Assembly: GCF_033153115.1 (NCBI RefSeq)
Contig: NW_026889771.1
Coordinates: 6,510,001-6,574,000, forward strand
Direction of reading: 5' to 3'
Length of the DNA: 64,000 bases
DNA from: Saccostrea echinata
Lineage: Eukaryota
Part shown: positions 9,201 through 64,000 of the stretch, one piece after another
Layout of the letters: each line of letters begins with the position of its first letter
Position numbering within the stretch: the stretch's first letter is position 1
Notes under the pieces: model-generated
Seen by the model: the letters and a program-made list of their open reading frames with translations, nothing else
The model's database searches: none
What the model was told of the DNA's origin: nothing
Position numbers and translations under genes: made by a program

Positions 9201-11383
9201 GTCCTTAAGTCTCTCTTTATTCAGTGGACCGGTCTCATGACCTCTCGGTTCCTCTTTCTTCTGTGAGCCAGACTTGTGACTGTTAGGTCCTTTTTTCTGT
9301 AAGCCAGACTCATGACCCCTAAGTCCCTCTTTTTTCTGAAGGTCAGACTCATGACCCTTGGATCGCCTTACAACACTGTACAGAGAAGTTGTACAGGAGA
9401 TGTGACACTGCAGGTTTTTATTAGTCAGTGTGGTCTTCAACTTCTTTAAAAAAAATAATAAAATCAATAATTAAATTCCAGACATTGTTCACATTCAAAT
9501 AAATTAAATAGTATCAATCATAATATATTCCTTACATAAATGCTTGGAGTAAGGATCAGACTTGTAATTTGTAAGCTTACGACATATTCATAATATTTTC
9601 ATCATGTATATTCATTAATTCATCTGCACTTCAAAGAGAGTTCATAGACCTTTCTTGGATCAGTGGAGCAAAAACTGATCTCTGGATGGGTTAAAAGTTT
9701 ACAAATTGAAGTGGGTTTTCAAAACATAAGGCCCTACATGGGCATGGACAATGTACATTTGTTCCCGTTATTACATCTAAGCCAACATTTTTCAAATGAA
9801 ATAGGATATGCTTACAAGCATTGTTAATCTACAAGGCCCTGATAAAATGCAGAATTCTTTCCCTGTTTTTCACAAGGGCTTGCTCTTGGAATGTAAACAA
9901 TATTAATTTAAAACAAAAAATCATATTGGTCTACTACTAAAATACATCTATTACATGTATTAGTATGCCCATACTTTTTTTAATTAATAATGTTGACATT
10001 CTGGAAGCAAGTCCCTGTGGTTTTACAGCATTTCTAAAAGCACTCAATAATTTAATTGTAGCGCAGCCTAATACATGTACAAAAGCTTCATAATCTTTTA
10101 AATATTGATTGAAAATTTTACCATTTTCTGTAATTTTAATCTCCTGTACATAAACGGTCTCCGGAAATCTTTATGCTGTCTGAATTCATCTAACTTTGGC
10201 TTCCGTCTCATTGATTTTCCTGAGTTGGCAGAGGGAGTATCAATATTAAATCTCCGAGCCTTTGGTTTCTTCCTGGTCTGTCCTAGATTATTCTTGGAAT
10301 TAGGCCTTTTACTTGAAGCAGGGTCAGTGGCTGAATTTAGGTCAATTTTTGCTGAGTTGCAATTGTCGCTAAAGGTATCCGGCAATGAAAAATCCGAATA
10401 ATTCTGAGATTGATCAGGGATGTCAAAACCCTGAAAGAAAACATACACACATTTTGTAAATTTCATGTGGTAGTTCACCTAGTTTCCGAAATTAACTGAC
10501 AAAATGTCTAGACAGACTAAACAGTTCACGTAGATGCAAAAATATGTCACACAATTCCACAGTGCAAATAAAGTGCATCAAGAGGCTTTTATTCCATTTT
10601 ATGATCGGTGCAGTAACCGTTATCAGTTTAATTGAAGGTTTTAAATTTCCAGCCTTTAGCAGGAAAAAAAAATTGTCTGCTATTTTCAAATCTAGACCAC
10701 CTAGATGAGTCACAGTATAACTGCTTATCCCACACCAAGTGGTGCAAAAAAGTCCCAATAATGATATGGAAGTAGGTCGTTATATCTTATAGCAAACCGT
10801 AATTCTAGAATCATAAATTATTTTCATACAAAAATGCAAATTGTCCTACAATACCTGAGAGCAGACTACTTATCACATTTCGTGTGAACTTAAGAGGCTC
10901 AAATTGGGAAAGGAAAATTAAAAATTACCTTGAAAACGGAGAACTTTTCTTTTTCTTGCATCCTGAAATGTGAGGTCCAAGATGGGGGTAAAGTAAATTC
11001 TATTGGCAACCAAGCCTCAGCTGGGATGTGCTTAAAATTTACCGCTGCAACATACAGAAACTGAGCTATAAATAGTAGTGCTTTGTATCATAGGGATAAC
11101 GCAACCTTGCCGGCGAAATTTTCTCAATAATTATTTAGTTGCATTTTATAATAGGCTTAATCATAGTGTGGTAATCGAAAGTTACAGCACTGTGCTACAG
11201 TGCAGGGGCAATATTTTCTTTCGTCATTTCCAAAATATTTTCCCGGCAAAACGTCATTACACAACTCGAGGGAGTCTCTTTACTTATTTAACTGTTCTAC
11301 TAAGGGATTTTATCTGATCTGTATGTGTGTGTTTTAAATTTTAAATTACCTTGGAACATCTTGGGCTGCAGTCTGGCGTCCAT
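259..11383 (-). CDS. DNMT3: DNA (cytosine-5)-methyltransferase 3; 19 coding exons in window, C-terminus continues beyond position 1
   Basis: Phase-consistent GT-AG exons: 11383-11350, 11044-10929, 10430-10122, 9443-8958, 6631-6449, 6133-6020, 5514-5403, 5146-5054, 4903-4859, 4667-4582, 4362-4315, 4030-3966, 3407-3353, 3234-3103, 2854-2782, 2136-1991, 1859-1766, 853-702, 344-259. The translation shows a PWWP domain (RWWP...WFGD), ADD Cys fingers ([30 protein letters not shown]) and MTase motifs [45 protein letters not shown]. Confidence 0.96.
6900..7340 (-). mobile_element. Degenerate Tc1/mariner transposase relic in a DNMT3 intron
   Basis: The minus-strand translation gives [10 protein letters not shown]...TDLVHIQ (Tc1 'FGGGSVMVWG' region). 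Near 7000-7040 it gives WPS*SPDLRPI (Tc1 WPxxSPDLNPIE motif). Stops and frameshifts are present. Confidence 0.75.
8733..8911. mobile_element. Short TA-flanked MITE (Tc1/pogo-type termini)
   Basis: Imperfect TIRs tacagtcaaac...gttcaactgta and internal inverted ttcgagata/tatcttgaa motifs. Confidence 0.6.
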
Positions 11384-11399
11384 CCCAAACCCAGAGTCG

Positions 11400-11430
11400 T
11401 TGTAGTTTGCCGCGTTTTTGCAACACGTGG
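11400..11430 (-). promoter_or_regulatory. Candidate DNMT3 proximal promoter motifs
   Basis: An E2F-like TTTGCCGC (11406-11413) and an E-box CACGTG (11424-11429) lie in a CpG-containing patch just upstream of the ATG at 11383. Confidence 0.4.
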
Positions 11431-13358
11431 TTTATTCTTTTAGGGGAAAAGTGCATACGTCTGCACATTGCAATAAGAGAAAAGTTGTCAAAATATTGTA
11501 ATAAGAATTTAAACATTTGTATTAGAGAACAAAATCGACATTCGTGGTGATGATGTTATCTGTTGAATGCTCTGCTATTTCAAGTGCAGCAATACAAATG
11601 CCAGCAAAACGCTCTTGATTATGACATTGATGATCACTCCTCGCTCTCTAAATCTAACAAACTTTAAAAAAAAAAAACTAGGAAAAGTCTGATTTTGTGC
11701 AAATCGGCAGTTGCAACGGATAAAGAGCTCTAGGGGTCTGGGTAGGGTTGAAAGACGGTGGATGCTATCCTAGTTGGCATACGTCTCAGTGTGGGTTCGT
11801 CATATTACATTCTCTCTAATACCAGAAAACCAAATAATTCATGATTTAGTCCAAATTAGCCAACAGTGCAATAACTTCTAGAGGTTTCTAAATCTAATGC
11901 ATTATTATATGGTGCACTTTTGATTTTTTAACCATAAACTCATAAATTCAGTGATGAGAAACGAAACACACATTCTTCAAAATTTATTGCAAAATCTAAA
12001 TTAAATGCCATTTTCATTTTAACTGGAGTAAAGATCAAAACATGATTAAAAAATTCATAAACCACATTAGGTGTACTCAAGTTAAAGATGAAAAGAAAAA
12101 AAAATTTTGCTTGTGATACAATGCAAGTCATGTAAACAAGGAGGGAAAAAAATATTTAACATCATTTTAATGATTTTTTCAAATCATAAAAATCAATTGA
12201 TTAAATCAAATAAATTACAACATAATGTAAATTACAGCATATTCATCTCATACAAGATCCATTAAAAAAGTAATGTGCTTGTTTTCCAGCAGATTACAAA
12301 TAAATCAAGCTTCATATATTAATTAAATCTCCATAGGAAAATATGCCCACACATTTCATTTTAATAATTCACCATTACCATTAAAAAAAATATACTTTTA
12401 GCTAACAGAATAATTACATCTATATTTTTTCCCTTCAATTCAATTGGAACATGTTCCAAAAAATGTTATTTAAGAAAGGGTTGATTTTTTTTTTGGGGGG
12501 GGGGGGGGGGCAGCTATTGATCCAAATTTGCATGACCATAAAATAAAGATATAACAGAGAAATTAAAATTCTTAAATTTTCAAGTTCATGAAAAATGAGT
12601 ACCAGTAAGAAAAATGCATGCTTCTGAAAAGACACATGTGTGTAAACAGCAACAGATTTACAGTGCAGTGCTTAGAAGTACAGCGTCAAGGATATTGGTG
12701 AGCAAATAACATGAACATCAAGTGGTAGCATATTTAGAAGATGTTAAAGAATATTATGCAATACATAATCAAATAAATGGAGCATAACCATATTATCAAT
12801 ATAATGCCATTTATATAAATATAATGAAAGATAACATAGCAATGAATAACATTCTTTAAAGATGCTTATAATTTCTCTCTCTCAAAAAAAAAATGATTTA
12901 CTAAAAATTTTCACAGTGGTTTAAGCCTACTTTGATCAAACATGCTTAACTTCTTCAATTACAATGATTATTTACCTTGAATGCAAATTAATAAAAAATA
13001 TAATTTCTCCTTTAGATACTCTGGTACCTTAAGCAAAAAACCCTATTAAAAGAAGCCACCAAAGACAAACTGACTTTCCCTCATAATTCAAATCTCAAAG
13101 GGCAGCAGCCCACATTACTGCTTATGAGTGGATAATAAACCATGTATTCTGTTTCCTTGGGCCATATTACACTATAATAATATTCACTTCTCAGCATTTA
13201 TGAGCTTTGAGAAAAATCCTTAGCTGGTTGCTGCTCTTTAATGCAGTTGTCAGGAGTAACCACTCTAAGCTCCCCTGAAATTATTATGGCATCTACATCA
13301 TGTGACATCTTCCCAGTCATGTGACATCTTCCCTGAGTCATGTAACCTCCTTCCTGGG

Positions 13359-16300
13359 TCATGTGACATCTTCCTCCGAGTCATCATCAAATTGACCAGC
13401 CTCCACCTGATGCTCTGTCCTATCTTTAGCCACTGGTTGAACATGCATATCATAGGGAAGGCACAAATGGTCATCTACAGTATAACCTGCCTCTGCCAGT
13501 GTCTTTGGTCTGGGGTGCTGGTAGATGTTGTTGAAGTAATTGTCATCTGCAACAAAAAGAAAAGTAACAATCAGATTTACAGATGTATAATTTATTATGT
13601 GATTTTGTCATATATCATTTGCAAAATAAATATCCTTTGCATTTAAAAGCCTGAGAAAAGAGCAGTTATGATATGTAACAATTTCTGTAATTGAACAAAA
13701 GTTTGAAATGTTCCTAGACATTTACAAAAGTAGCAGCCATTTTCTGTATATATAATGTAATGTAGAGTTTTATCAAAGTTCATATACGACACAGAAGCAA
13801 TTTCAACTGTTCCAAAACTTTCGAGTATATTATTACATATATTACTAGAAAAGTCAGTGATATGACAGTTGCATACATGTACATGCATTCCTTTTAGACT
13901 GGGAAAAAGCAGAGGAGAGTGTTTGTACGGAAACTGATTTGACTTGGACTTAAATAGTTACCATGGCCAACACAGCCTCAAAATTTATCTTTAATGATTT
14001 TAAAAATGTAGTTTTATAATTTCAAACTTACCATATTGAACATCAAAAGGATTGTCCACGTCTTCCAGCTCATCATCCCAGTTCTCTTCTGCTTCTGTTG
14101 CCTCGGTTACAGCTTTATATCCCTCATCCATCATATTGGATACTGGACTGCATACTAAAAATATTGCCTTAATTTGAATGGATGCTGATAAGTGCAGGGC
14201 TGTAAGATTGTAGCAGTTAGCCTAGCTGTAATTTAGCTTGCTATCACTATGTAGGTCTAGCATAGATGTTTATTTGACTTCGTAGCACTACAATCTATGC
14301 AGCTGCTATGATCTTGCATGCAGCCCAGATGTGTTTTGTACTTTCATTAAATGGATAAATCAGTTTTATCAAAAAAAAATATTTTTGATCTGCTCATGTT
14401 GAGTGTAAAATAAACTTTCAAAGGAGTCAAATAAAATGAATTACATCTTGATTACCCAAAGTAGATTACTGAAAAAAGTGAAGCAATACCTGTGAGAAGA
14501 TTATAGACACAATTTCAAATAGATTGACACATTCTTATCAATTTCAATCTATAAGCAAAATATTCCTTTATGGAGGTTTTTAAAATAAAAAGTTACTTGC
14601 TATTTCTTCAAAGCATCATAAATCTCAATGTAATATTGAGCTCTTCAAAAATTTATCAAGAAGGCAAAAAATCTCTTAACAGTATTTTTAGATAAGAAAA
14701 GTATTTAGGACTCACTATTTCCTTTTGGGTGAAATATGGGAGGCTCAAAGTCATCTTCTTCATCTTCAGTATCATCATCTTCTTCATCTTCTTCTTCTTC
14801 TTGGGAGTATCTCCTTTTTCTGACTTGGAGGAAGTTAAAATCATCCCTGCGTACAAACTTCTGTCTTCTTCCCTTCCCTTCATGAGATCTCCAGAAGGAC
14901 ATTCCATGTTCCACGGCATCACGCAGGAGATTTTCACTGAATCCAAGGTCCTTAGGTGGGGGTTCAAAGTCCAGCTCTTCAGTTGCGACATCCATCTGTC
15001 AGATAAATAAATATTCATTCAATAGATCCAGAAATATTTGAAATATAAAAAGTTTCAATTATGTATAAAATTAATACAGAAGACAATTATAATTGTGATT
15101 ATTGTTCAACATTTATCAACGGAGATACAATATCCAAAGAAAAAGTGATTGTAACAGGCTTTTCTGTACCTTGATGATTTTGTCCTCCATCATGGACAAA
15201 TCTTGTCGGGCTCGACCACGCCAGTTATTTTTCAGTTCTGGATTACGTGGCGGGTAGTGGGATTGTCTGACAATCTGTGGCACATCATACCAGGGAATGT
15301 TGAAGCAATTCTGGAATATAAAAAAAGAAGCTATTCCAACTAGATTTCAATGAACATACACATTTATTTCAAAACTCTAAACTAACAGATAGAAGTGTCA
15401 ACCTTAATTTATATGTACTTGCATTACTTTCACATTTTGAACTATTTTTGTACTTCTTGTACACTTTAAATATCTCAGCAACATACCGGTACATTTTTTT
15501 TATGACATGAATATTATATTTGCACACATAGAAAATCTCAAATTTTTAAGACAACTCCAAAGATGACATTGAAAAAGAATATGTTTTACCTATAATTGAA
15601 GATGAATCATGAAGCGTTACCCATATATGCCACTGTGATAATCATAATATTTATATGTGGACAGACATTTTCAATTCTTAGACCAAGAGTTGTCCTTATG
15701 TTGTTAAGGTTCATTAATCCTCTGATAAGAGAGATAACTCTTAATAAGATTTATGTCTTTTACTCCTATTTTTTATGTGTGAACAGTGGGTGATGAACCT
15801 TAAATTAAAGTTAGAAACACTCTAACACCTAGATACATGTAAGTGATTTATAGTTGTTAACACATAATTATAGCATTAAAACTACTCAAAGATTGGGGGT
15901 GATAGATGCTTAACCTGTCAGTGACATAAAAAAATACATTATGCTAAAATTTATGTAAATTAGAATGTTATGGAAATCATAGAAAGTTTCCCCCCAGTGT
16001 TATTCTATAGTTATCACTGCATTAGTGAACAGATGAAAGTGTTTGTGTTATCAAAGAATTATATCACTTCAAAAAGGGATATCAGTCTATATCATTCTTG
16101 CCCAGATAAAAATCTATTAAAATAAATGACTGATTATACATACAGATACATAGTTTATGTTTATTCTTCATTTCTTTAAAAAGAAAAAAAAATCACCTCT
16201 GATAAATCTAGTCGCACCAATTGTTTGAAGTAACCTAAAGCCTCCGGAATTTCTGTTAACTTGTTGTTGAACAAATCCAATGACTTAAGACCTGTCAATT

Positions 16301-19300: not shown

Positions 19301-20730
19301 GGGGGGGGGGGGGGGGGGGCAGAGACCAGGGAATTCACAATTTTTGTTTCCCTTCACCCAAAACTGCTATATGCCAAAATTGGTTGAAATTAGTTCTGCA
19401 GTTCAAGAAAAGACGCTGAAAATGTTCAAATGTTAGCGCATGAGATGTATGAAAACAGAAAGCAAATATAGGTCACCTAAGTCACTCAGCTGGAGACCTA
19501 AAAATGTGACAAGTTCAAGGACAACACTGTTTCACACAGCAGCTGACGAAAGCAGCAACAGGTCATCTAAGTGACTCAGGTGTCCTAAAAAAAATTATGC
19601 TCAAAATCCTCTGAACCAAATATATGAAGTAGGCTGTCCTTACCCAAATCAATAAATTCCAGGTTTATAAGATTTCCAAAATCATCAGGCAATTCTTGGA
19701 GCAAGTTTTCATCCAAATATAGAATGGTTAGTCTAGTCAATTCACAAAAACTCTTTGGAAGATAAGTCAACCAGTTGCCATTTTGAAAAGCTCTCCTTTC
19801 TAGTTCACCAATACAACTTCCAAGTCGCAGTGTCTCTAGGTTCTTCATGCTTCCAAAAGTGTCTGGTAACTGATCCATGAAGTTTCCTCCAATGTCTAAC
19901 AAAGTTAATTTAGTACAGGTACATCCCATTTTCTCATTTATGGCACATTTTGAAAACTGGTTGTCGCTCAGAGAGATTTCCAAAGCCTCGCTCATGTCCG
20001 CCACCCATAGTGGAATGTCTGCCAGTCGATTCCGATCAGCATAAAATTTCTGAACACATTTCACAGAATGAAAATGATCTGGTAAACTCTCCAAATGATT
20101 TCTCGAAAGATCCACAATCTCAAGATTTTCAAGATCTCCTAAACTATTGTGAATTTTTTCCAGTTTGTTGTTTGATACATTGAATATCTTTAGAGATCTT
20201 AACTGACCAATGCCTTCTTGAATAACAACAAGGGAGTTATCACTCAGCTCCAAAATCTCAAGATTTGTGAACAACCCCAAAGTCAACGGCAGTTTTGTTA
20301 ATTTATTTTCATCACAGTAAAATGCTTTTAGGCTACGAATTTCACCTAGGTCATTGGGTAGCATTTGAAGTTGGTTGCCTGTCAATTTCAAAACTTCTAA
20401 GTTACACAATTTGCACACTGAGTCTGGGAGATTCCTAAGTTCATTTTCATTCACATTTAACTCTTTTAACTGAGACAGACTCCCCACACTTTGAGGAAAC
20501 TCTTTCAGTTGGTTACCAACCAATGAGAGCACCTGGAGATTCACACAAACCTCCCCAAAAGATAATGGCAACTCTTTAATATCATTAAAATCCAACTGCA
20601 ATTTAGTGATATCTGGACCAATTCCATTTACAATCTGAGGGGGTAGAGTAACAAGATCTTCAGAGGATAAATCTAGAACCCCTCCAATGACTTTCTCTCT
20701 GTAGTCTTCATTTTCTGATGCACCTGCCAT
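13359..20730 (-). CDS. Leucine-rich repeat protein (SHOC2/LAP-type 23-aa LRRs) with acidic C-terminal tail, ~699 aa, 7 coding exons
   Basis: Exons 20730-19644, 16695-16547, 16328-16197, 15310-15170, 14995-14716, 14154-14032, 13546-13359 join in frame (2100 nt). Many LxxLxLxxNxLxxLP repeats, then D/E-rich segments; TGA at 13361-13359. Confidence 0.9.
17560..18360 (-). repeat. Old degenerate copy of the 166-bp satellite-bearing HINE family
   Basis: Eroded matches to the 45757-47088 element (tgtggcccca, catgatttgatcaaacttaaatctaca, aattatctccc). Confidence 0.55.
18361..19590 (-). mobile_element. Helentron-associated non-autonomous element (HINE/DINE-like), same family as 56109-58580
   Basis: It begins aacaagaggcccaagggcc (3' palindrome, reversed) and ends ggtcatctaagtgactcaggtgtcctaaaaa (5' subterminal hairpin, reversed). 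It contains reverse-complement copies of the ~168-bp unit. Confidence 0.75.
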
Positions 20731-21365
20731 ATCTGAAAAAAATAAATAAATGAGAATGTTTAATTCATTTATCAAAATGTTACAGACACTAAATTGTCAA
20801 AGGAATCTGTGAGATAAAAACTTTTCATGAATATTCGTCCATACAACAAATAAATTATCATGACCATTCAAAGCCATTAAGTTATTCATATTTGTCCCTA
20901 TATATTGATTGTCAAATGGAACAAGTGACACTAGTTTGCGTAAAACCAATTTCAACTTATCAAGGATGAGTGAATGAGTGCAGATTTTGGTAATGGGTGT
21001 GCCGGAATTAATCCAAGGTATTTGACTGGGTATAAATTATGATCACTCTAGAAAGTAACACTGAAGCCTTGTACTAGTTCCTGAACGAACTTCATGTGAT
21101 TGTTTTATGTGCGACTTAACTGACCATATCATTCTTTTAATAATACATATACTGTATATCAACTATTAATCATGATATCTTTTATTGCCATTTGTCAGTT
21201 TGTAATTAATCTGCCACTACTAATTTTTCACATTTTTCAAGGAAACACTTATTAATAACATAAATATACAAGAGGATCAATGGTTCATGGCGAGAAATAT
21301 TCATGGGGTAAAGAAGGACGCGAAACTCGTGGACATTTCTTGAAACTAATAAAAGTTGGTTTACA

Positions 21366-43412: not shown

Positions 43413-44276
43413 TTTTTATGCCCCTGGATCGAAAGGTCCCGGGGGTATATTGTTTTTGTCCTGTCTGTCTGTTTATCTGTCTGTCTGTTGTCAACTTTAA
43501 CCTTGCCCATAACTTTTGATTGGTTGGAGCTATGACTTTCATATTTCATGTGTGTATTCCTTGTGAGAAGACTTATCTTTGGGTACCATCATATTTGACC
43601 TTTTGACCTTGACGTTGGAGTTTGACCAAATTTGCAAAATTTTTAGAGACTTTAACCTTGGCCATAACTTCTGAACAGTTGGTGCTTTGGGTTTTCAAAC
43701 TTCAAATGTGTATTCTTTGTGACAAGGCCTTCCTTTGGATACCAACAACTTTGACCTTTTGACCTTGACCTTGGAGTTTGACCTTCTTTTGAAAAACTTA
43801 ACCTTGGCCATAACTTTTGAACAGTGGGTGCTTGGGGTTTCAAACTTCACATTTGTATTTCTTGTGACAAGACCTTCCTCTGGATATCAACCTCTTTGAC
43901 CCTTTGACTTTGACCTAGGAGTTTGACCTACTTTTGAAAAACTTTAACCTTGGTCATAACTTTTGAACGGTTGGAGATAGGGCTTTCATACTTCACATAT
44001 GTAATCCTTTTGACAAGACCTTCCTTTGGATACCAACAACTTTGACCTTGACCTTGATGTTTTACTTACTTTTAAAAAACTTTAACCTTGGCCATAACTT
44101 TTGAACAGTTGCAGCTAGGGCTTTCAAATTTCACAGGTATATTCCTCGAGACAAGACCTTTCTTTGGGTATCTTTTTTATCTTTTGGCCTGGATTTTGAC
44201 TTGCATTTGAGAAACTTTAACCTTCGCCATAAGCTGCCATATGGGGGCATCAGTATTTCCAAACACATCTTGTTTG
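43413..44276 (+). mobile_element. HINE/DINE-like element, same family as 28599-29779, ~5.5 internal repeats
   Basis: Same 5' atgcccc hairpin, GTCT microsatellite, ~145-bp units and gggggcatcagt..aaacacatcttgttt end. Confidence 0.85.
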
Positions 44277-45756: not shown

Positions 45757-46835
45757 AACAAGAGGCCCAAGGGCCACATCGCTCACCTGAGCACTGTGGC
45801 TAGGAAAAAAGGAAAAATCAGTTTAGTATTGAAAAGCTTAAATGCATAAGTGGTCCCAACCTACCCTAAAAATGGAGTGGGGGGGGGGGGGGGTGGTCAT
45901 CATGAGTTGAACAAACTTGAATCTACACTATCTGAGGATGCTTCCGTATAAATATGACAAACCGTGGCTTTGCTGTTCTTGAGATTTTTAAAGATTTTTC
46001 CTATATATTCCTATGTAAAACTTTGATCGTCCATTGTGGCCCCATCCTACCCCCAGGGGTCATAATTTGAACAAACTTGAATCTACACCACCTGAGGATG
46101 CTTCCACATAAATATGACCAATCATAGCTTTGCTGTTCTTGAGAAGAAGATTTTTGAAGATTTTTCCTATGTACACCTATGTTAAACATTGATCGTCCAA
46201 TGTGGCCCCACCCTACCCCTGGGGGTCATGATTTGAACAAACTTGAATCTACACCACCTAAGGATGCTTCCACATAAATATGACTAATCATAGATTTTCT
46301 GTTCTTGAGAAGAAGATTTTTGAAGATTTTTCCTAGATATTCCTATGTAAAACTTTGATCGTCCAATGTGGCCCCACCCTACCCCTGGGGGTCATGATTT
46401 GAACAAACTTGAATCTACACCACCTAAGGATGCTTCCACATAAATATGACTAATCATAGCTTTTCTGTTCTTGAGAAGAAGATTTTTGAAGATTTTTCCT
46501 ATATATTCCTATGTAAAACTTTGATCGTCCAATGTGGCCCCACCCTACCCCCGGGGGTCATGATTTGTACAAACTTGAATCTACACCACCTGAGGATGCT
46601 TTCAAATAAATATGACCAATCATAGCTTTGCTGTTCTTGAGAAGAAGATTTTTAAAGATTTTTCCTATATATTCCTATGTAAAACTTTGATCGTCCATTG
46701 TGGCCCCACCCTATCCCCGGGGGTCATGATTTGAACAAACTTGAATCTACACTACCTGACAATAATTCCACATGAGTTTCATCTTTCCTGGCCCACTGGT
46801 TCTTGAGAAGAAGATTTTTCAATAATGCCATTAAT

Positions 46836-51110: not shown

Positions 51111-52584
51111 TAATTTATCTGTCCATTGTAAAATCGAAGACGGAGCATTCCCTGATATGACGTAAACATCGATGTTACTTTTATAATAAACAATATTAAA
51201 CATTTAGATCGAAACATTCTAATAGCTGGAGATGTTTTACGAAATATCTCTCTAATTGCTTTGTGTAATCGGGGTACTAGAGACATCAGATTACAGAAAT
51301 AGTCAATTGGTTTCAATACCGGAATGGCAGCCCCCAGATTTCGCATGGCGGACATGCCTAGTTGAAGAAAAACAGACAGTTATGGAAAAAGTACGCACAG
51401 AATTGTTAGGAACGAAACAAATAGTTGTACCCATGACGTTCAACTATCTGCACATATACAACAAATGTCATGTTATTGTTTTGTTAGACCTGTAGCTGTG
51501 CAGTCCTGCAAGTGTAATATGCACATTATTGCTGCATGACACTGCAAGTGACAATCAAACTGCATACATATCAAGACAGCTTTCCCATGGAAGGTGTCAT
51601 AGGTCAGTTTTCAAGAGTAAGCAAGAAGTATTTATTAAGATATTGAGATTTTTATTTCGTACGAGTTTCACTTGGATGAACACAAAACCAAACCCTTAAA
51701 CAAACCATTTTGTCAGGGAACTTTTTGATGCACATGAATAAAAACGTCATTTATGTGTGTACACATCATCAGTTTCAGAGAGGGGTAAACTACAGTGTGG
51801 TGATCTGGAACGTTAGATCACACCATCACTTGATTTCATAAATTCATCAGTAAAACAGAGTGACAAACAGTTGGGTATATTAATAAAAACCATGAACACA
51901 CATGATATATGTAAGAATGTTTCTCTCAGATGCAGGTTCAGATGCAACATCTGACAAGCATTTTACACTTCACTGACTCTAGTGAACAATAGTATTTAGA
52001 CATAATTCAAGCATAACACAAGTATACAAATTAAACTTTGTGAAATCTTTTTGGGATGAGTTGTGTGTTGTCAGAATTACTGGTAAAAAGTGTCTTATAT
52101 TTTCAAAAAAGTAAATGCATAGATTTTAATTTTTACGAAGGTGTACATGTAGTTATGAACCTATTTTGAGAAATTTTGTTTGCTCAATCATCTTAATCCT
52201 GTCCGTTTCCCATTTGCCCTTATTTATATGGTCATGACTCGCATATATATCCACTTTAATAGTGTTTCAAGAGCAAAAATTTTGATATAAAGATCAGTTG
52301 TGCAATAAATTTAATTGTATTACTAATTAATGGGTTTCAAGCTTGGTGAAGACATGAATTGATAATGCAATATTTTCAATAATAATTGCTTAAATATTTT
52401 TTTAAGTGCTAGTATTAAAGGACAATTAGAATGTACAGGTAGATTAACTTTATAATACATCTAATCAGTGTTTCTATTAATTTCAGGAGACAGAAAATGG
52501 ACAGAAATTGATACAGAGTGCCATAACCATAACTGCAGATGATAACAAGTTGGTGTCAAATTGGAGCAAATAATTACACACAAA

Positions 52585-55500
52585 ATGATTTTCATTGATA
52601 ATAACAACGTGAAGTACGAGGTCTGCCAAGTAACGGTGACAGAGGATAGTAAAATTGAATTTACTTTAGAGAATGAACCAGGCAAGAGGGTCATTGAACA
52701 GATGCCACATAAGTTTACTCCATTACACACTGGAACATTACATCCAGAAATAACCCCCGTCCAGCCGGGGGAACATCGAAAATGTAAACTGTGTGAAAAA
52801 CGGTTCACAGACACAGAGTCGTTAGAAAAGCACATGGGTTTACACACATATGGCAGGGGATATAACTGTGAAGTATGTGGGAAATCTTTCAGTGCCAAGT
52901 CCTTCCTAAAAGTCCACATGATGATTCATACAGGGGAGAGGCCTTTTGTCTGTGAAATTTGCAACAAGGGATTTTCCAGAAGTTCCAACCTAAAGGCACA
53001 CCGTCTTACTCACACGAAGGAAAAGCCTTTTAAATGTGACTTCTGTGAGAAAGTTTTCACTCATCCGTCTAACATGAAGAAACACATAAACTCACAGCAC
53101 TCGGAAGGAAGGCCTTATAAATGTGAATACTGCGATAAAAGCTACAAACTATCCAAGCATCTAAGAAGACACATTTTGGTTCATAATGTAGATAAAGATA
53201 AAGTAAAGTATGCCTGTAATATTTGTGACAGATTATATTCTTCAAAAGAAGCAGTAATTAGACACAAAAAGCAGCACAAGTTGCCTCCAGCAAGTGATGT
53301 TTCTGAAATGTCTGATTTAGTTGGTGAAGAGCTCTTTACCGATGAGAATGGTATTCTGCAAGTAAAACGAGAGGTTGTAATTCCCCCCGAGAAAATCCAG
53401 ATTGAAATGCCGTCCCCTGTAAAACTAGTACCAAAAAGGGTGGTGAATACAATGATGAAGTGTGAGCATTGCACAAAAAGATTTGTGAATCAAGTGGACC
53501 TGGACAAACACTTGACTCTACATACAGGAGAAAGACCTCACAAATGTCTAGTCTGTCACAAGGCCTTCAACGCAAAGTCATTTCTGAAGGTCCACATGGC
53601 CACACACTCCAGTGAGAAGCCGTTCAAGTGTGATGTATGTGGAAAAGGTTTTAACCGACCCTCAAACCTGAAGGCTCATAGAATAACTCACGATAATCCA
53701 AAGCCATACCCTTGTAATATCTGTGGAAAGATGTTTTCCCATCCCTCAAATGTCCAGAAGCATATCAGAATACACACAGATGAGAGGCCTTACCAATGTG
53801 AATATTGCGATAAAAATTTCAGACAATCCAAGCATTTGACCAGACACATGCTTATACACACATCAGCGCCCGGTTCACTTAGATGTGCTCGATGTGATAA
53901 AAGATTTTTAGATGAAGAGGAGTACCTAAGGCATAAGCGAGAACATGAGCTGAAAAAGCAGTTCCAGTGTGAAGTTTGTGACAGAACTTTTTTCCGTTCA
54001 TCACATTTGAAAAGACACATTCGAACCCATACCTCAGGAAGAGCAAATCCATGTGATTATTGTGGAAAGCCATTTAACTCCATAGCAAACCTTAGGAGGC
54101 ATCTGATGATAAATCATAAAAAAAATACCAAACATCAGTGCCAGGTCTGTGGTCAAATGATTCTTCAGCCATCTCATCTAGAAAAACACATTAAAGAACA
54201 TCAGTGCCCTGTTGTCAATGTGAAGGAAGGAGAAAGTATTTTCCCAGAGGAAAACAACACAGATGAAAGGGCCTATAAGTGTTACCTCTGCAAGAAAACG
54301 TTTAAGCAACACACTTTTCTGAAGAAGCACCTCGAAATGCACAACAGTAAGGTTCTGTACAAGTGTGGGGTTTGTGAGAAAATTTATCCTTCTATGGCAG
54401 GCATGAAAAAACATATGGAAATGCATGGTGATGGTCCATTTAAATGTTTTGTATGCTCAGTAGAATTTGAGGAGTATTTGGACTTGAAAGAGCATCAAAA
54501 TATACATCAAAACAGTGAAGAGGAGAAAAAATATGCTTGTGACCTGTGTAAAAAACGTTTCAAATATCGACTGTCTCTTAGAAAGCACAAGGAACTGCAT
54601 AATTTAGAGGAGCCAGTTGCTACAATCTTTCAATGTGAAATTTGCTCACAAACTTATCACAGCCGTGCCTCTCTTTCAAGACACTTGAAAACTCATGAAG
54701 TGCAGTCTCTCGAGATAGAGGGGGATGGAGGAGTGTCCCAGACAATACATTACGTGTTAGATCACAGTGTTCCTATTTCAAATGAAATGGAGCTTCAAAA
54801 CCAGACAGTCCAATTACTACCAAGTAATGAGGCTACTGATGAAGTAGCCGAAATTGAAATTCCAGCCAATGCAGTTCAATATTTTACAGAGGAAGGAGGA
54901 CAGCAAGTATTACACATTGCCTTCAATGATATAGAAAATCAGATATCAGAAACAGTCCAGTCAGTACAAGTGATATCTTATGGGGCAGATGGAAATGTCG
55001 AGGTACAAGAAGTTGCAGCTGATAACAGTAAGAGAACAGAATTGCAGATAGCTACTGATGATTCTGTTAGGAGAAAGGACTTTCCAATTCCTGCAGCCCA
55101 TAATGGAAAAACAGAATATCAGGTCATTGAGACAGACAGGCAAGGAAATCCAGATGTGCTTGTAGTAACTGCCGATAAATGTCAGAATGAAAAACGTCAA
55201 ATTGTTGCCAGCAACATCTCTAACAATGCAGATAACCATTCTTTTACAGCAGATGGCAGAGGAATAAGATTGACATCAGCAAATTATCAAGTTGCTACAA
55301 GTAGCAGTCAGAAAAACACAGGAGCACATGTTGCTGTGGTAGATGGCAAAATGATTAGTGATACTTCTGCAAATTATCAAATTGTTACCTCCAGTAACCA
55401 GAATGTAGAAAGACATGTTGCTGCAGTGGATGCTAAAGCTGCTAGTGTAGCACTAAAATCTGTTAGATTTAAGAACATTCAAACTGTTACAGAGGTGCAA

Positions 55501-55965
55501 CAATCAAAAGAGGATCCAAATACAATGACTGTGATGAACTTCAGTGAAGGAACCTCTGATGGCAAGGATCCATTTGAGAGCATATCATTGGTGTTGTCTG
55601 ATGAATCTGGAAAACAGTATATCCAGGTCCCATCAGAAATTCTCAACAAAGCAATCAAACTTCAGTCATCTTCAGCAGAACCAATGGTTTGCACTGAACC
55701 AAGTTCAAAAACACATCCCTTGGACAACAGTTCCTCTGTTGAAACTGTAAATATTATCTATGAAGAAGCCCCTACAGGAAGTGAAATTTCAAGTACCGAA
55801 GGACTCATCCAACTAGCAGAAAGAGCTATACATTCAGAAGTGAATGGACCTGAACATTTAGCAGAGACTGTTGTTATTTTTGAGTCACCCTCTAAAGTTT
55901 CCAACTCAGATCATTCCTATGTTAATGTCGCTGAAGAAGGTATTCAGCCTGGTCTAGATGTGTGA
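52585..55965 (+). CDS. C2H2 zinc-finger protein with 20 fingers in a single coding exon (~1126 aa)
   Basis: The ORF 52561-55965 has its first in-frame ATG at 52585. It has 20 CxxC..HxxxH fingers with TGE(R/K)P-type linkers and an acidic low-complexity C-terminus. Acceptor at 52486 and upstream donor at 51391. Confidence 0.93.
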   Translation: MIFIDNNNVKYEVCQVTVTEDSKIEFTLENEPGKRVIEQMPHKFTPLHTGTLHPEITPVQPGEHRKCKLCEKRFTDTESLEKHMGLHTYGRGYNCEVCGKSFSAKSFLKVHMMIHTGERPFVCEICNKGFSRSSNLKAHRLTHTKEKPFKCDFCEKVFTHPSNMKKHINSQHSEGRPYKCEYCDKSYKLSKHLRRHILVHNVDKDKVKYACNICDRLYSSKEAVIRHKKQHKLPPASDVSEMSDLVGEELFTDENGILQVKREVVIPPEKIQIEMPSPVKLVPKRVVNTMMKCEHCTKRFVNQVDLDKHLTLHTGERPHKCLVCHKAFNAKSFLKVHMATHSSEKPFKCDVCGKGFNRPSNLKAHRITHDNPKPYPCNICGKMFSHPSNVQKHIRIHTDERPYQCEYCDKNFRQSKHLTRHMLIHTSAPGSLRCARCDKRFLDEEEYLRHKREHELKKQFQCEVCDRTFFRSSHLKRHIRTHTSGRANPCDYCGKPFNSIANLRRHLMINHKKNTKHQCQVCGQMILQPSHLEKHIKEHQCPVVNVKEGESIFPEENNTDERAYKCYLCKKTFKQHTFLKKHLEMHNSKVLYKCGVCEKIYPSMAGMKKHMEMHGDGPFKCFVCSVEFEEYLDLKEHQNIHQNSEEEKKYACDLCKKRFKYRLSLRKHKELHNLEEPVATIFQCEICSQTYHSRASLSRHLKTHEVQSLEIEGDGGVSQTIHYVLDHSVPISNEMELQNQTVQLLPSNEATDEVAEIEIPANAVQYFTEEGGQQVLHIAFNDIENQISETVQSVQVISYGADGNVEVQEVAADNSKRTELQIATDDSVRRKDFPIPAAHNGKTEYQVIETDRQGNPDVLVVTADKCQNEKRQIVASNISNNADNHSFTADGRGIRLTSANYQVATSSSQKNTGAHVAVVDGKMISDTSANYQIVTSSNQNVERHVAAVDAKAASVALKSVRFKNIQTVTEVQQSKEDPNTMTVMNFSEGTSDGKDPFESISLVLSDESGKQYIQVPSEILNKAIKLQSSSAEPMVCTEPSSKTHPLDNSSSVETVNIIYEEAPTGSEISSTEGLIQLAERAIHSEVNGPEHLAETVVIFESPSKVSNSDHSYVNVAEEGIQPGLDV

Positions 55966-56108: not shown

Positions 56109-58580
56109 TTTAGGTCACCTGAGTAAACTCAGGTGACCTATTGCTATCTGTTTTCGTCCGTCATCGTACGTCGTATGTCGTTCGTAAACTTTTGAACATT
56201 TTTAGCTTCTTCTCTGGAACAACTGGACCAATTACATCCAAATTTGGTATACAGCATTTATGGGTGAAGGGGAACAAAATTGTGAATTTCATGGTCCCTG
56301 CCCCCCTGGGGCCTGAGGGGTGGGGCTAAAACCACCAAAAATAATGCAATCTTTAAAAATCTTCTTCTTTACTCCTGGACATCAGGCAGTCAAACTGTTG
56401 GCATCATTGTAATAAGCATTGAGCCCTCTACCAAATTGTGAAATTCATGGCCCCAGGGTGGGGCTATATAGATCATATAGTGAAAGTGCATTATTTCTTT
56501 GAAAATCTTCTTCTCTGCTCCTGGGTATTAAATAAAGTTACTAAGTACATAGTTATGATGAGCAAGAGTGCCTCTTCCAAAATTCTGAAATTCATGGCCC
56601 CAGGGTCAGGGGTTCTGGTGTTAGGGAGGGGCTCTATTGATTATATAGTGAAAATGCATTAATTCTTTGAAAATCTTCTTCTCTGCTCCTGGGTATTATT
56701 TAAACAACCTAAGTGCATGGTTATGATGCATAAGGATGCCTTTTCCAAAATTGTGAATTTCATGGCCCCAGGGTCAGGGGTTCTGGTGTTAGGGCGGGGC
56801 TCTATTGATTATATAGTGAAAATGCATTAATTCTTTGAAAACCTTCTTCTTTGCTCCTGGGTATTAAATAAAGTAACTAAGTACATAGTTATGATGAGCA
56901 AAAGTGCCTTTTCAAAAATTGTGAATTTCATGGCCCCAGGGTCAGGGGTTCTGGTGTTAGGGCGGGGCTCTAATGATTATATACTGAAAATGCATTAATT
57001 CTTTGAAAATCATCTTTTCTACTTCTGGATATTTAATAAAGTAACTAAGTACATAGTTATGATGTGCAAGAGTGCCTCTTCCAAAATTGTGAATTTCATG
57101 ACCCCAGGGTCAGGGGTTCTGGTGTTAGGGCGGGGCTCTATCGACTATATAGTGAAAATGCATTGATTCTTTGAAAATCTTCTTCTCTGCCACTGGAGAC
57201 TATTTAAACAAACTAAGTGCATGGTTATGATGCATAAGGATGCCTTTTCCAAAATTGTGAATTTCGTGGCCCCAGGGTCAGGGGTTCTGGTGTTAGGGCG
57301 GGGCTCTATTGATTATATAGTGAAAATGCATTGATTCTTTGAAAATCTTCTTCTCTGCTACTGCAGATTATTTAAACAAACTAAGTGCATGATTATGATA
57401 GACAAGGATGCCTCTTCCAAAATTTTTAAATATATGGCCTCAGTTTTTGGGGTTCTTGAGGAGGGGGAGGGGGGGCTCTATTGATTATATAGTGAAAAAG
57501 CATTAATTCTATTAATTAATCATTAATTAATCCTGTCGGCTCCTTAGTGTTGAGCTGATAAATAAATTGCTTAGCTATGATGAAAATGGGAGCTTCGAAC
57601 AGAATTTTTAAATCTTGTGGTCCTAGGGTCAGGGGTTCTGGCATAACGAAGGGGGGGGGGGGGGGGGGCTTTTGATAATATAGTGAAAAGTGTTAATTCT
57701 TTGAAGTCCATAGTAATGATGATGAGGATAACTCTTCCGAATTTGTAAATTTCTTGACCCTTGGTCTTGGGTTCTGCTGTTAGGGTAAGGCTTTGTTGAA
57801 TCTGTAGTGAAAATGCATTGTACCTGTGAAATTCTTCTCTGCTTCTGGGCATATCGGAAGCAAACTGAGTAAAAGTTTAAATGATATGAGTAAGCGTATT
57901 TCTACCAGATTTTTAAACATCTGGACCATTCGTCTAAGCATTCTGGTCCTGGGCAGGGCTCTTTTAATTCGTATTCTACTGAGAGAAGTTATTCCCCTTT
58001 TCCATTCACCTTTGATAATTAATCACTGTTAATAATGTATTTGAAAGGTTAATAGAATAAGATAATTATGCAAGAATGTTTATTGTATAATTAAAAAAGT
58101 ACTTTCTTTTTTTAATAATCAGGTAGACATGTAAGTAATAGATAAATAAAAATGAGACAAAAATAACTTATCTTATTAAAAGTTCTCTAAAGACCATAAG
58201 AGAGGTCAATGCTAGAGGTCTTAATATGGGTTTAAAAATAGTACAGAAGCACTAATAGTTTGTTAATAGTCTGCATGGTGATAGTGTAAAGTGGGGGACA
58301 GATTAGAACTCAATTTCTGAGTTGATAGTGAATAATACTAGACTAATTATTTTGTTGATCCTGATCTTCCTACCTCTCTTGTTTTTGTTCCTCTGCTCTG
58401 CCTCTGGGTATTAAGTAATCAAAGTAAGCATGCTAACTGTATAGTTATGATGAGCAATAGTGCCTCTTTCAAAATTGTGAATTACATGGCCTCTGGTTTA
58501 AAATACAAACCAAATTCAATTGTTGGAAAGTTGTTACACGATACTCAGGTGACCTATAAGGCCCGTGGGCCTCTTGTTTT
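56109..58580 (+). mobile_element. HINE with internal ~168-bp tandem array, 145 bp downstream of the ZNF stop
   Basis: 5' taggtcacctgagtaaactcaggtgaccta hairpin, (CGTC)-like microsatellite, units marked by ttcatggccccagggtcaggggttctgg at ~168-bp period, then 3' ctcaggtgaccta plus the aggcccgtgggcct palindrome and ttgttt. Confidence 0.88.
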
Positions 58581-59924: not shown

Positions 59925-62091
59925 TTACTTCAGACCGAGGAACCTTTTTAATCGATCCTTGAGTGGCATCTTTCCTTTTCTTGCCTACAAAAATAAAAAA
60001 ATCCAAAAAATTGTCCTGCTAAGTATAAATAAATCATAATCATATACTAGAATATTACGTCTGTCTTCTTAAATTCTGTACCTTTTGTGTACGAGGTGAT
60101 GTGGTGCTTTCTATGTTCTGTGGTAGTACATTGCTTTCTTTGACGTCAGCTTTTATTCTGCTATCACTGACGTCCTTCAACTGACAGTGTTCCATTTCCT
60201 TTTCTTCTACTTTCAGATCACTCTGAAGTTACACATGAAGAGAAAGGATTTATAGCAAAGTAAAAATTTTAATTATAAAATGACCCAAAAAAATCGACAA
60301 AAAGACCATAAATAAATTCCAATTATTTCATTTTCAAGTTTTGTAACTGAGTTGTCTCCCTGTGCCTGTTATGCATTCCTTAGTTATAGACTATATTTCA
60401 AGGAACACTAAAATTATTGGCTATAGTTATAGCAAAAATAAAATTAAGCCCCCTTAATTGAGAAAAAAATCCATAAAACAATGTTTTTTCTATGGAAGGT
60501 TTATAATTATTATGTGTATAGTGATTCTCAATTCAAAAATGGATTTTAATGGAAGTATAATGTATATATAGTCATTTAATAAGGACATACAGCTATGTGT
60601 AATTGATTCAACTGGATTAATAAAAAATACCTTTGAGAGAGTCTTGAAGGTGACAATATTAAACAACAACAGCTTTCTTGGCACAAAATGTTCTCGTTCC
60701 GACTCTTTCTTTGCATGGCGACTCTGTAAAATACAATTACATTTTAATATTGTTATTTCAAACATATAAGAACTGAATACATAATGATACAGGTACTCAG
60801 TAATAGCTCTGTCTGAATTCAACCAGTTTTATGATTTTTATCACACACAGAATAATATATATCTGCATACAATTTGATTTTGTTATTTGGAACAGGGTAA
60901 TACTTTGAAATTTTTTTTTTCTATTTTACTCTACTGCTATAACATAATAGAAAATAATGAAATTGAAAATTAAATACATATTTTATAATGACATATATTT
61001 CCTTACCAGAAGCTCTTTGTGAATTGTTTTCACAATTTGTTTAACTTTTTCCTTTTCTTGAAGTCTTGTCTACAAGAAAATCACATTTTTTTACTTTTAG
61101 TAAAATAACTAAATAAAATGTATCTTAATGAATGCAAATAATATTTTGATCTCTTACCAAAAGCTCCTTGTGGACTTTTTGAAGACATTGTCGATGAACC
61201 ATCTTAACTTGGATGCTTGTCTGAAAAAAAAATCTNNNNNNNNNNNNNNNNNNNNNNNNNNNNNNNNNNNNNNNNNNNNNNNNNNNNNNNNNNNNNNNNN
61301 NNNNNNNNNNNNNNNNNNNNNNNNNNNNNNNNNNNNNNNNNNNNNNNNNNNNNNNNNNNNNNNNNNNNNNNNNNNNNNNTTATTTTCTTTAGTCGAATAT
61401 TCGATTGCATTATTCGAACGATAGTCGAATATATTCGAAACTTTTTCGGAAACTAAAATTTTATTTCAAACTTCACTGGTACATCACATATTTAACCCCA
61501 AATTCCCCTTTTTTAAATTGATTAAAAAGTTACATCAAATGTTACACACAGATGTTCACATGGACTTAAAATGTAGATAGCGTGTTTATATTTACTTAAT
61601 AAAGACCGCTAATTTCTCCAAAATGTAGGATCTCCCCGTCAATCATGTTCATAAGTCGGTTTTTAGGAAGCATAAAAAAATGACAGTGTGATATATTTTT
61701 TAAAGCTTATTAAAATGATGGGGGGGGGGGGCACAAACGGTGACCTTCATAATGTTAAGTATTTGAATATACTTGAGGTCCAATTAATAATTTTAGAAAG
61801 AAAGCGCAGTATGGCGAGATAATTTTATTACAAAACAACACATTAATTGACAAATAATTCTCGCGGAAGCATTTCTAATCACTGTACTTTCTACGTGTAA
61901 AGTCAGCAGTTTTTAATGAGGAAAATTATCTTATCGACTGTGTCCGAGGAAAGACGGTTTCTCAATTTTAGTATGAGAATTCCATCTCTTTATCACTCTT
62001 TTATTGAATTTATTTATTCGAATGTCGTTTCGTTATTCGATCGTCGGTCCATTCGACTGATGGTCGAATAGTCGACTATTCGTCGACATCC

Positions 62092-62163
<72 letters not shown>

Positions 62164-63884
62164 TTAAAGAAGNNNNNNNNNNNNNNNNNNNNNNNNNNNN
62201 NNNNNNNNNNNNNNNNNNNNNNNNNNNNNNNNNNNNNNNNNNNNNNNNNNNNNNNNNNNNNNNNNNNNNNNNNNNNNNNNNNNNNNNNNNNNNNNNNNNN
62301 NNNNNNNNNNNNNTGACTTCAAACATGTTTTATCACATTTCTTACCAGCAGTTCTTTGTGTAACTGTAACAACATCTGATAACGAGATTTCTTCTCTTTG
62401 ACTTTGTTCTGGAAAAGAACATACTTTTAAAAAGCATTCACACAAATAAAAAGGCTTCAGTTACTACACATCAAATTTCTTTCATTATTTGTAGATGTTA
62501 ATGTCTGATCTAATTTTTGTACCAGAAGCTCATCATGTACTTTGTGCAGCATCAGTTGAAATGCCCTTTTCTCCTCTATTTTTATCTAGGAAAAATTGTA
62601 AACGTTTAAAAGAATATCCACATAATCATATAATAAAATTGAAATTAATAATTTATGTACAATGATTTAAAAGATAGGTATTGTTTACTTACTAAGAGCT
62701 CATTATGGAGATTTCTCATTGTCTGCTTACGAGCCTCCCTATCTTTCCATTTTTTCTGGAACAAAAAAAAATGCATTTAACTAAACGCACTGACAAATGG
62801 AAATAAATAAATGTATAATTTAGCATGTATACAGATATCTATACAAGTCTGAAATAGACATGTATAGATACCTGTATACATGCTAAATCAGTGATTTTCT
62901 TTTTCTTACCATTAGTTCCTCGTGCATTTTTGTCAGTATCTGCTGTTGGTTCTTTTTTTCCTGAATTTTTGTCTGAAAAAGACACCATAATTCTGTTTAT
63001 ATACAAGATCAGGCAATTTATTTCATTTTAGAAGAATGGCAGAAATTCCTTGACCCTCCACCCACCCCTCCCCCGAAAAAAGGTTCATCAGACATTATTC
63101 TTGAGGGGGCACAACTATAAATCAAAATAGGTTTTCTATCGTTAAGTTACCTGAGAGACCCGATTTTATTTATCCATTTATAAAATATAACACCCAATAC
63201 AGTACGTACCCAGGAACAGAAAAGGTCAATTATTTAAAAGACAAGGTAATTAAATAAAACTATTTATAATGCCAAACAAAATAAAAGTCATCAAAACATT
63301 AAAAAAAAAAAATGGCACAATTCTTAAACAGTTACATAATACTAACAGAAAATGTGTTATATAATAAGAAAAAGTATTTTCGTATGTGTAGACAAGATCT
63401 GGCATATAAGAAAAAAATTACATGTTCACCCCCACCCCTCCCCCGAAATAGTACAAGATTGGGCATATCCGCCACTAAACATAAACTGTACGCTGTTTTG
63501 ATCCTGGCAATATTATTTGGGGACCCCCACCCCCTTTGATCTCTCCGGTTTCTAACAGGTTTGTTTACCCTAGATACACAAGTCTTTATCTTACCAGCAG
63601 CTCTTCATGGATATTTCTCAGTCCATGTGCATGTATCTTATGTTGGTTTTTCTTTTCGTGGAATTTTTTCTAGAAAAACAGTATAAAATGTATTTCAAAT
63701 TAATATCAGTCTCAAAAAAATAAAATTATCCCGCGTGATCATGAACTGCTTGTATCTTTCTCTTTTATTGTCATTTTTCTTTCTGCCGTTTTTGTATATG
63801 CATGGTTCGTTTTACTTTATTTAAACTTATTACCTTCACTTCCTCGACAATTTTCTTCATTTTCTCTTGTCTTCTTTTTTCCTC
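59925..63884 (-). CDS. Unrecognised multi-exon helical/coiled-coil repeat protein built from 63-nt phase-0 exons; 5' end beyond window
   Basis: Exons 63884-63834, 63669-63595, 62972-62910, 62755-62693, 62585-62523, 62408-62346, 61220-61158, 61069-61007, 60723-60631, 60222-60082, 59984-59925 all have AG/GT boundaries, are phase 0 and are stop-free. The protein ends MPLKDRLKRFLGLK*. Confidence 0.85.
61236..61379. other. Assembly gap (N run)
   Basis: Ns in sequence. Confidence 1.
61388..62094. mobile_element. hAT-like MITE fragment with subterminal (t)attcga/tcgaat repeats, between two gaps
   Basis: The right terminus ...tcgtcgacatcccta (TAGGGATG reversed) and clusters of attcga/tcgaata at both ends. 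Confidence 0.55.
62095..62157. repeat. (TA)n microsatellite
   Basis: Pure TA run. Confidence 0.97.
62173..62313. other. Assembly gap (N run)
   Basis: Ns in sequence. Confidence 1.
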
Positions 63885-64000
63885 CTGTCGAAGAAATTTT
63901 GAAGATATTTAAAAGATCTCAATGATTTTCTTTCTGACACTTAAAGATTTTCCCCTCATGAGCAAATTTTGCAAATTATGCAAAAACTTGTATAAAATGT

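Follow-up and report, generated by a model that had tools for sequence, protein, structure and literature searches.

An oyster gene family that combines a candidate SLIP1-binding motif with a predicted helical repeat rod and a basic tail

In the papers cited here, only three metazoan proteins are described as carrying a SLIP1-binding motif (SBM): SLBP, DDX19/DBP5 and eIF3g (PMC3763545; 10.64898/2026.07.31.742013). In SLBP the contacts are made by Trp94 and Val98 together with Asp96, Glu99, Glu102, Asn93 and Gly95, and the contact positions of the motif are a Trp at position 0, a small residue at +1, Asp at +2, Val at +4 and Glu at +5 and +8 (PMC3763545). SLIP1 is a dimer with two SBM sites and has been proposed to bridge different SBM proteins (PMC3763545). 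The SBM of DDX19B keeps CTIF tethered in a translationally incompetent state (PMC8373075), PAIP1 also recognises SBMs (10.64898/2026.07.31.742013) and in human SLBP the motif is directly followed by a consensus cyclin site (PMC3764509). Here we describe a minus-strand gene of the oyster Saccostrea echinata, most exons of which lie in a stretch of 64,000 nucleotides (contig NW_026889771.1, positions 6,510,001 to 6,574,000; referred to below as the window, with coordinates counted from its first base). By its sequence, the second coding exon of this gene has the determinants of an SBM.

The gene comprises 13 coding exons that form one open frame of 305 residues with a predicted isoelectric point of 9.7 (Table 1). 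A sequence-only reading of the window had proposed a hidden gene built of seven repeat exons, six of 63 nt and one of 75 nt, each flanked by AG and GT and in phase 0. The exons and the peptides quoted for them are confirmed at their coordinates, on the minus strand, as parts of a genuine protein-coding oyster gene that is spliced; a search for H-x-E-L-[LMIV] in the six frames of the 64-kb window returned nine matches, seven of which are repeat-exon ends. The gene is less hidden than was supposed, as RefSeq already has a partial model of its last 170 residues (P0001, Saccostrea echinata LOC133190826, the only entry returned by word-based protein searches for the window gene), and it extends past the window end. 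The most informative exon, coding exon 2, sits outside the window, beyond the view of that first reading. Phase 0, true as it is for the repeat exons, is no hallmark of them: all 12 coding introns are in this phase, including those flanking non-repeat exons. At least 10 of the 12, together with the 5' non-coding intron, are bridged at their CT..AC ends by contigs from four public runs (three samples at most, from two studies; rare variants drop out of such contigs; that these runs are RNA is a guess, no run covering this stretch being recorded as RNA). The joint between coding exons 2 and 3 is represented by loose contig ends only, and that between repeat exons 2 and 1 (62972/63595) is absent among the joints listed.

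A profile of 31 exon-2 peptides placed the zebrafish SLBP SBM peptide, 4JHK_C, at the top of 177,635 PDB sequences (E=0.002). Only three other matches were obtained at E<=10, two BCCIP chains aligned to the ILKF part (E=1.1) and, in fourth place, the SBM of eIF3g (E=1.4). At positions 0, +1, +2, +4, +5 and +8 the window gene has W, A, E, M, E and D, with S at -1; the Met at +4, where the contact is Val, is also present in oyster SLBP. In the DNA fetched around the loci, 61 exons of this type were chosen solely by their sequence up to the Trp (62 pattern matches minus one chance match on the opposite strand). The SBM core (W, V/M/I at +4, D/E at +5 and D/E at +8) is complete in 58 of them, against 3 of 9,186 other Trp windows of the fetched DNA, one of these three being oyster SLBP itself. 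Residue by residue, +4 is V/M/I in 60 exons (V in 53, M in 7), the acidic positions +2, +5 and +8 are conserved in 54, 60 and 60, a small residue occupies +1 in 47 and Asn, Ser or Asp occupies -1 in 59; all six side features occur together in 40/61. A stricter form of the pattern was found 21 times in 67 database proteins, compared with a mean of 0.09 after shuffling. The putative helix encoded by exon 2 is therefore, as far as its letters indicate, a rather likely ligand for the groove of SLIP1, CTIF or PAIP1.

A SLIP1 ortholog is encoded in the genome at C17:5.16 Mb (exon L116:5119-5313), its best PDB match being 4JHJ_A (E=1.2e-5); counterparts of CTIF and PAIP1 were not located. The predicted complex of this ortholog (three exon-coded pieces, modelled with no alignment) and the exon-2 peptide obtained a score of 0.06 and a mark of 0.34, and gave no answer. 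More copies of the SLIP1 ortholog exon are located on C63, at 100.6 kb (L119), 138 kb (L121) and 209 kb (L120); one is identical and possibly a haplotig, one is partial (87%) and one contains a stop (75% identity).

The RNA-binding domain of SLBP, PF15247, has no match in P0001 or in 16 relatives, and a single locus in the genome carries it (C1:45.21 Mb). With no RNA-binding domain and no globular domain, the protein therefore most likely acts through short motifs. With a confidence that falls a little short of even, we propose that it could be an SBM tether or sink for SLIP1/MIF4GD-type factors, holding them off SLBP, DDX19 and eIF3g. The SBM at the front of the rod would sit in the groove of SLIP1, CTIF or PAIP1, and the repeat exons would provide a spacer or dimerising rod, lengthened in whole helical turns by exon duplication; once dimerised, the rod could offer two SBMs to one SLIP1 dimer. 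The basic amphipathic tail would fix the rod to a membrane, and the R-x-L-F motif would dock an additional partner, perhaps a cyclin by which turnover is timed, as it is in SLBP. The net outcome would be a tether or sink damping histone-mRNA or export-coupled translation.

Several points weigh against this proposal. The likeness to the SBM was supposed first and then tested, so that the PDB profile search is a targeted check and no blind discovery. The SBM exon was not seen at 10 of 52 loci (10 kb fetched at each), and the motif is present in only 13 of the 67 database proteins, many of which are partial; P0043 of M. gigas has Gln at +5, and P0027 of Ostrea starts with another N-terminal module. 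Known SBM complexes do not account for the invariant K-x-x-I-L-K-F and LDFG patches next to the motif, the SBM exon of oyster SLBP scores weakly against the family profile (7.5 bits), and the proposal offers no explanation for the near-invariant His (97%) of two repeat subfamilies. Moreover, sequence cannot discriminate between a sink and an activator. As an activator, the protein would be a positive adaptor that fills one site of the SLIP1 dimer while SLBP or eIF3g fills the other, bringing messenger ribonucleoproteins to the membrane for local translation. The motif evidence for such an adaptor is identical to that for the sink, and the two-site dimer with its proposed bridging would suit it well. 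No RNA-binding domain was matched, however, and 17 of the 52 loci have at least two SBM exons, which would fill both SLIP1 sites; competition is therefore favoured, and the adaptor is considered unlikely.

The window gene belongs to a family with at least 54 loci on 18 contigs that carry a C-terminal motif of the FVPRKLFLF type, as found by four genome searches with C-motif exons; the strict pattern is seen at 52 loci and a variant form at the other two. In the plan common to the members, an LDFG exon and an ILKF..W exon form the N module; helical repeat exons come next, then the acidic exon with FVPRKLFLF, a linker that varies and the basic tail. In P0016, an independent RefSeq model, 9 of the 11 introns are in phase 0. 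A profile of 36 C motifs, run against 1.84 billion representatives, retrieved 50 proteins at E<=0.001. Thirty of these were looked up: 8 are unnamed, and the 22 that are named all come from Saccostrea, Magallana/Crassostrea or Ostrea, under generic annotations such as trichohyalin-like, golgin-like or uncharacterized. Members P0021, P0027 (Ostrea edulis) and P0036 have an N module of the form LNP...EFVP.RK...LP.W in place of the SBM module. As a separate observation, the subfamilies L043, L047, L055 and L061 and the proteins P0021, P0027, P0036 and P0042 contain exons of 20-23 residues with a Y/F-I-x-x-I-I-x-x-A pattern, four times in P0021, which we take to resemble AKAP or DPY-30 docking helices.

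Pfam gave no family at cut-off for P0001, the 16 relatives, the C motifs or the SBM exons, and neither the ESM Atlas search nor the Foldseek structure search matched a family. The PDB sequence search returned no family for P0001, nor did the profiles of the repeat (one match, unrelated), the C motif (no match at E<=10) or the tail (no meaningful match). The 209 pattern matches in metagenome contigs included none that was confirmed as a family member, and no intronless copy was seen in the genome. Open-access full text on oyster coiled-coil families, the SBM, oyster SLBP/SLIP1 and Ostreidae expansions held no account of the family, and its gene ids were absent from open-access papers and from one supplementary file of PMC12564202. 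Judged by these searches, the family appears to be undescribed, confined so far to oysters and a variant of a known motif-based system. That it forms an oyster-specific set of SBM decoys or tethers, in which membrane-anchored rods of tunable length show one to several SBMs and titrate SLIP1, CTIF or PAIP1, is a tentative and somewhat doubtful extension of the proposal made for the window protein. Sorted by locus, 25 have a single SBM exon with repeats, 14 have several without repeats, 3 have both and none has a single one without repeats. This split suggested that the rod is needed by single-SBM genes and dispensable in multi-SBM genes, an idea that was dropped: the repeat-bearing loci form one clade (28/42, support 97, in a tree from 129 bases), and the association therefore counts as one event and is no evidence.

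A paralog of the window gene, paralog B, lies ~780 kb away on the opposite strand, with a DNA identity of about 76-81% over the gene and collinearity over about 12.5 kb. It has eight repeat exons, the last one a duplicate, and letters resembling paralog B in the public-run contigs indicate splicing of this gene as well. The two genes differ by 0.15 in their introns and by 0.17 at synonymous sites. The ratio of nonsynonymous to synonymous divergence (dN/dS) between them is 0.49 for the repeat exons and 0.16 for the other compared exons, the linker exon being excluded because its lengths differ. Coding exons 1 and 2 each show 0 nonsynonymous and 3 synonymous changes, and the C-motif exon encodes an identical protein with no nonsynonymous change. 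Over 14 paralog pairs the dN/dS of the SBM exon is 0.23, or 0.12 over 13 pairs when one mis-registered pair is removed, and that of the C motif is 0.08, the lowest of any element. The terminal motifs are thus under purifying selection. With regard to a possible spread of the copies by a transposon, the similarity between best-partner copies stops at varied places.

This strong constraint on the C motif, which together with the tail is also the most widely shared part of the family, would suit a lineage-specific helical scaffold that acts through these two elements, in which case exon 2 would resemble the SBM by convergence, as an acidic Trp helix recognised by an unrelated partner. The existence of members without an SBM and the invariance of the ILKF and LDFG patches point in the same direction. 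Convergence is harder to reconcile with the pattern of conservation within exon 2, in which it is precisely the contacts at +4, +5 and +8 that stay constant, each in 60 of 61 exons, and +3, +6 and +7 vary, and with the SLBP SBM as top PDB match. A scaffold of this kind is regarded as improbable.

The C motif contains R-x-L-[FL] in 34 of 36 aligned cases, a short and common pattern with a low predicted local distance difference test (pLDDT) value at this place. This pattern presumably resembles a cyclin-docking site, and the cross-junction repeats presumably resemble WH2-like actin-binding helices, so that the protein could be a cell-cycle or cytoskeletal regulator. The consensus cyclin site of human SLBP and the RRKL of oyster SLBP, in the exon next to its SBM, would agree with the cyclin version. 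However, Pfam gave no WH2 or CDK-inhibitor match, the PDB searches with the C-motif and repeat profiles were as poor as described above, a conserved LKKT-type motif is lacking after the helices, and the C-motif profile gives the oyster SLBP exon no score; this alternative is very unlikely. Likenesses to WH2/actin, thymosin, PAM2, eIF4E-binding, B56, PP1 and CDK-inhibitor sequences had been considered as candidates, and no analysis supported them.

The basic tail pattern was found in 32 of the 67 database proteins, with a net charge of +5 to +8 and a predicted helix, and, in the stretch that was searched, at 21 of 52 loci, one of these being a weak chance match. This amphipathic tail would probably anchor the rod on a membrane, although it may instead have a nuclear-targeting role.

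The rod itself is encoded by a variable number of exons. At 29 loci 195 repeat exons were detected, of 21 (35 exons), 24-26 (17), 27-29 (43) and 32 residues (100), with 1-13 per gene; automatic phase-0 exon chaining missed one of the seven repeats of the window, so that these counts are lower bounds, and phase 0 is an assumption of the method. What the repeats conserve as a unit is a hydrophobic patch that ends in x-E-L and runs on over the exon junction, with charged stretches between successive patches. The four main lengths (21, 25, 28 and 32) are sums of 7 and 11 and lie 3 or 4 residues apart, about one helical turn, and therefore fit a continuous helix or imperfect coiled coil enlarged by exon duplication. 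The AlphaFold2 model of P0001 has a helix across residues 2-83 (pLDDT 90-99 in 10-residue blocks over residues 1-80), then a disordered stretch and the tail helix. The full-length model of P0043 consists of two long helices with no globular domain (predicted template modelling score 0.34); its N-terminus is of low confidence, and a helix that starts close to the SBM, at residue 29, runs into the rod.

The sequence-only reading had also suggested that the repeats are under selection at the protein level, that they belong to no recognised family, and that they form a coiled-coil rod of three heptads per repeat, with an invariant His in the core and a length tuned by exon skipping. The first two suggestions stand: no known family was matched, and the His, Glu and Leu of the repeats are written with both or several synonymous codons, so conservation acts at the protein level. 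As to the rod, one long predicted helix is retained and the His-core heptads are not supported. The His is kept in 34/35 repeats of the 21-residue class and 97/100 of the 32-residue class, but in only 15/43 of those with 27-29 residues and in 37 of the 76 matches to the motif among database relatives; in the latter, Magallana included, F, L, K or Q stands in its place. Repeats of 21 to 32 residues are not uniformly three heptads. The heptad register first proposed has 0.48 hydrophobic residues at a/d, places the always-charged position 6 in the core and omits from it positions 12, 16 and 21 (77-100% hydrophobic); the best register reaches 0.57 with the His at e, and hydrophobicity recurs most strongly with a period of 4.2, followed by 3.5. 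Length tuning by skipping fared no better. Length differs between genes, and no clear skipping joint was present among the joints listed; the lone candidate (62409/62696) has no splice ends and occurs in contigs with paralog-B letters, and the corresponding exon of paralog B differs at 14/63 bases, under the 88% limit for contig placement. A metal-, haem- or pH-responsive coiled coil with a His core and a length set by skipping is thus hardly probable, since the near-constant His of two classes with both codons in use, the predicted continuous helix, the lengths built from 7 and 11 and the phase-0 exons that would permit in-frame skipping are outweighed by the replacement of the His in the 27-29-residue repeats and in Magallana relatives, the register and period just given, the equal phase of the non-repeat exons and the defects of the only skipping-like joint.

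Table 1. Features of the window gene. L009 denotes the DNA adjoining the window; its base 1 comes directly after window base 64000.
Feature	Coordinates	Strand	Remarks
5' non-coding exon, spliced	L009 about 1140	-	Beyond window end
Coding exon 1	L009:964-1008	-	ATG and ILDFGE motif; beyond window end
Coding exon 2, 25 aa	L009:315-389	-	ILKF patch and SLIP1-binding-motif match W-A-E-A-M-E-E-E-D; beyond window end
Intron 2, part inside window	63885..64000	-	Leads to exons beyond window end
Coding exon 3, charged helical linker, 17 aa	63834..63884	-	
Repeat exon 1, 25 aa	63595..63669	-	Terminates in H-E-E-L-L
Repeat exon 2, 21 aa	62910..62972	-	
Repeat exon 3, 21 aa	62693..62755	-	
Repeat exon 4, 21 aa	62523..62585	-	Internal Met is the start of RefSeq partial model P0001
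Repeat exon 5, 21 aa	62346..62408	-	
Repeat exon 6, 21 aa	61158..61220	-	
Repeat exon 7, 21 aa	61007..61069	-	Present in duplicate in paralog B
C-motif exon, 31 aa	60631..60723	-	Signature F-V-P-R-K-L-[FL]-L-F, includes R-x-L-[FL]
Variable linker exon, 47 aa	60082..60222	-	Disorder predicted
Last coding exon	59925..59984	-	Basic amphipathic tail helix, end F-L-G-L-K and stop codon
3' untranslated region	Reaches at least 59804	-	

Other features were noted in the window and elsewhere in the genome. Convergent with the window gene, a single open frame of 1139 residues with many C2H2 zinc fingers occupies 52546-55965 on the plus strand. On the minus strand there are a 403-residue open frame with leucine-rich repeats (19585-20796), exons at about 1900-15000 that we take to resemble a DNMT3-type methyltransferase with a PWWP-like stretch, and a short frame (36452-36712) presumably resembling the end of a BIR domain. 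Tandem arrays with units of 146, 166 and 168 bp are found at 28697-29736, 43649-44167, 45900-46773 and 56455-57510. Outside the window, an exon at L102:1859-2850 (C51, about 3.282 Mb), in a gene that we assume to be UPF2-like, continues into many in-frame tandem copies of a 29-residue coiled-coil unit. More than 20 actin-like loci are distributed over C2, C3, C22, C25 and C1, most of the matches beginning at the codon-42 point; the one locus inspected has an intron after codon 42.

The hub formed by SLIP1, CTIF and PAIP1 joins mRNA export, histone-mRNA translation and PABP loading. If the proposal is true, an SBM multigene family with neither an RNA-binding nor an enzymatic domain would be a new control route for the SLIP1 hub, and the decoy family would be the host-encoded counterpart of viral mimicry at the SBM groove, expanded in the manner of conflict or germline genes. 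The natural variation in SBM number and spacer length is directly testable against the two-site SLIP1 dimer. In any case, a family of more than 50 genes in farmed oysters, generically named or missed by annotation, is brought to light.

Among known systems, the N-terminal region of SLBP shares with the window gene an SBM with the same determinants and an R-K-L motif after it. In oyster SLBP (C1:45.21-45.22 Mb; L098:2811-2907 and 721-769, minus strand) the SBM exon, with Met at +4, is followed by an exon with RRKLQLYG, which loosely resembles the C motif of the family. Unlike SLBP, the window family is multi-copy, lacks PF15247 and has a helical rod between the motifs and a basic amphipathic tail; the introns around the motifs are in phase 0 in the family and in phase 2 in oyster SLBP. 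Because the intron phases differ and the profile scores are weak, an origin of the family from SLBP is not established. DDX19/DBP5 and eIF3g resemble the family in that their N-terminal SBM could fix SLIP1, CTIF or PAIP1 at a given place. Each of them is a single conserved protein and has a helicase or RRM domain, whereas no globular domain is predicted for the family, whose genes have from one to several SBM exons and have been found so far in oysters alone. Oyster sperm bindin, a secreted protein of F-lectin repeats that splicing and recombination diversify, has one repeat per exon and a variable repeat number, as the window family does; the two have no sequence relation, and the family is without a lectin domain. 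Finally, SARS-CoV-2 NSP3 offers a parallel as a non-core protein that occupies the SBM groove of PAIP1 (10.64898/2026.07.31.742013); it is viral and unrelated in sequence, whereas the window family is host-encoded, intron-rich and expanded.

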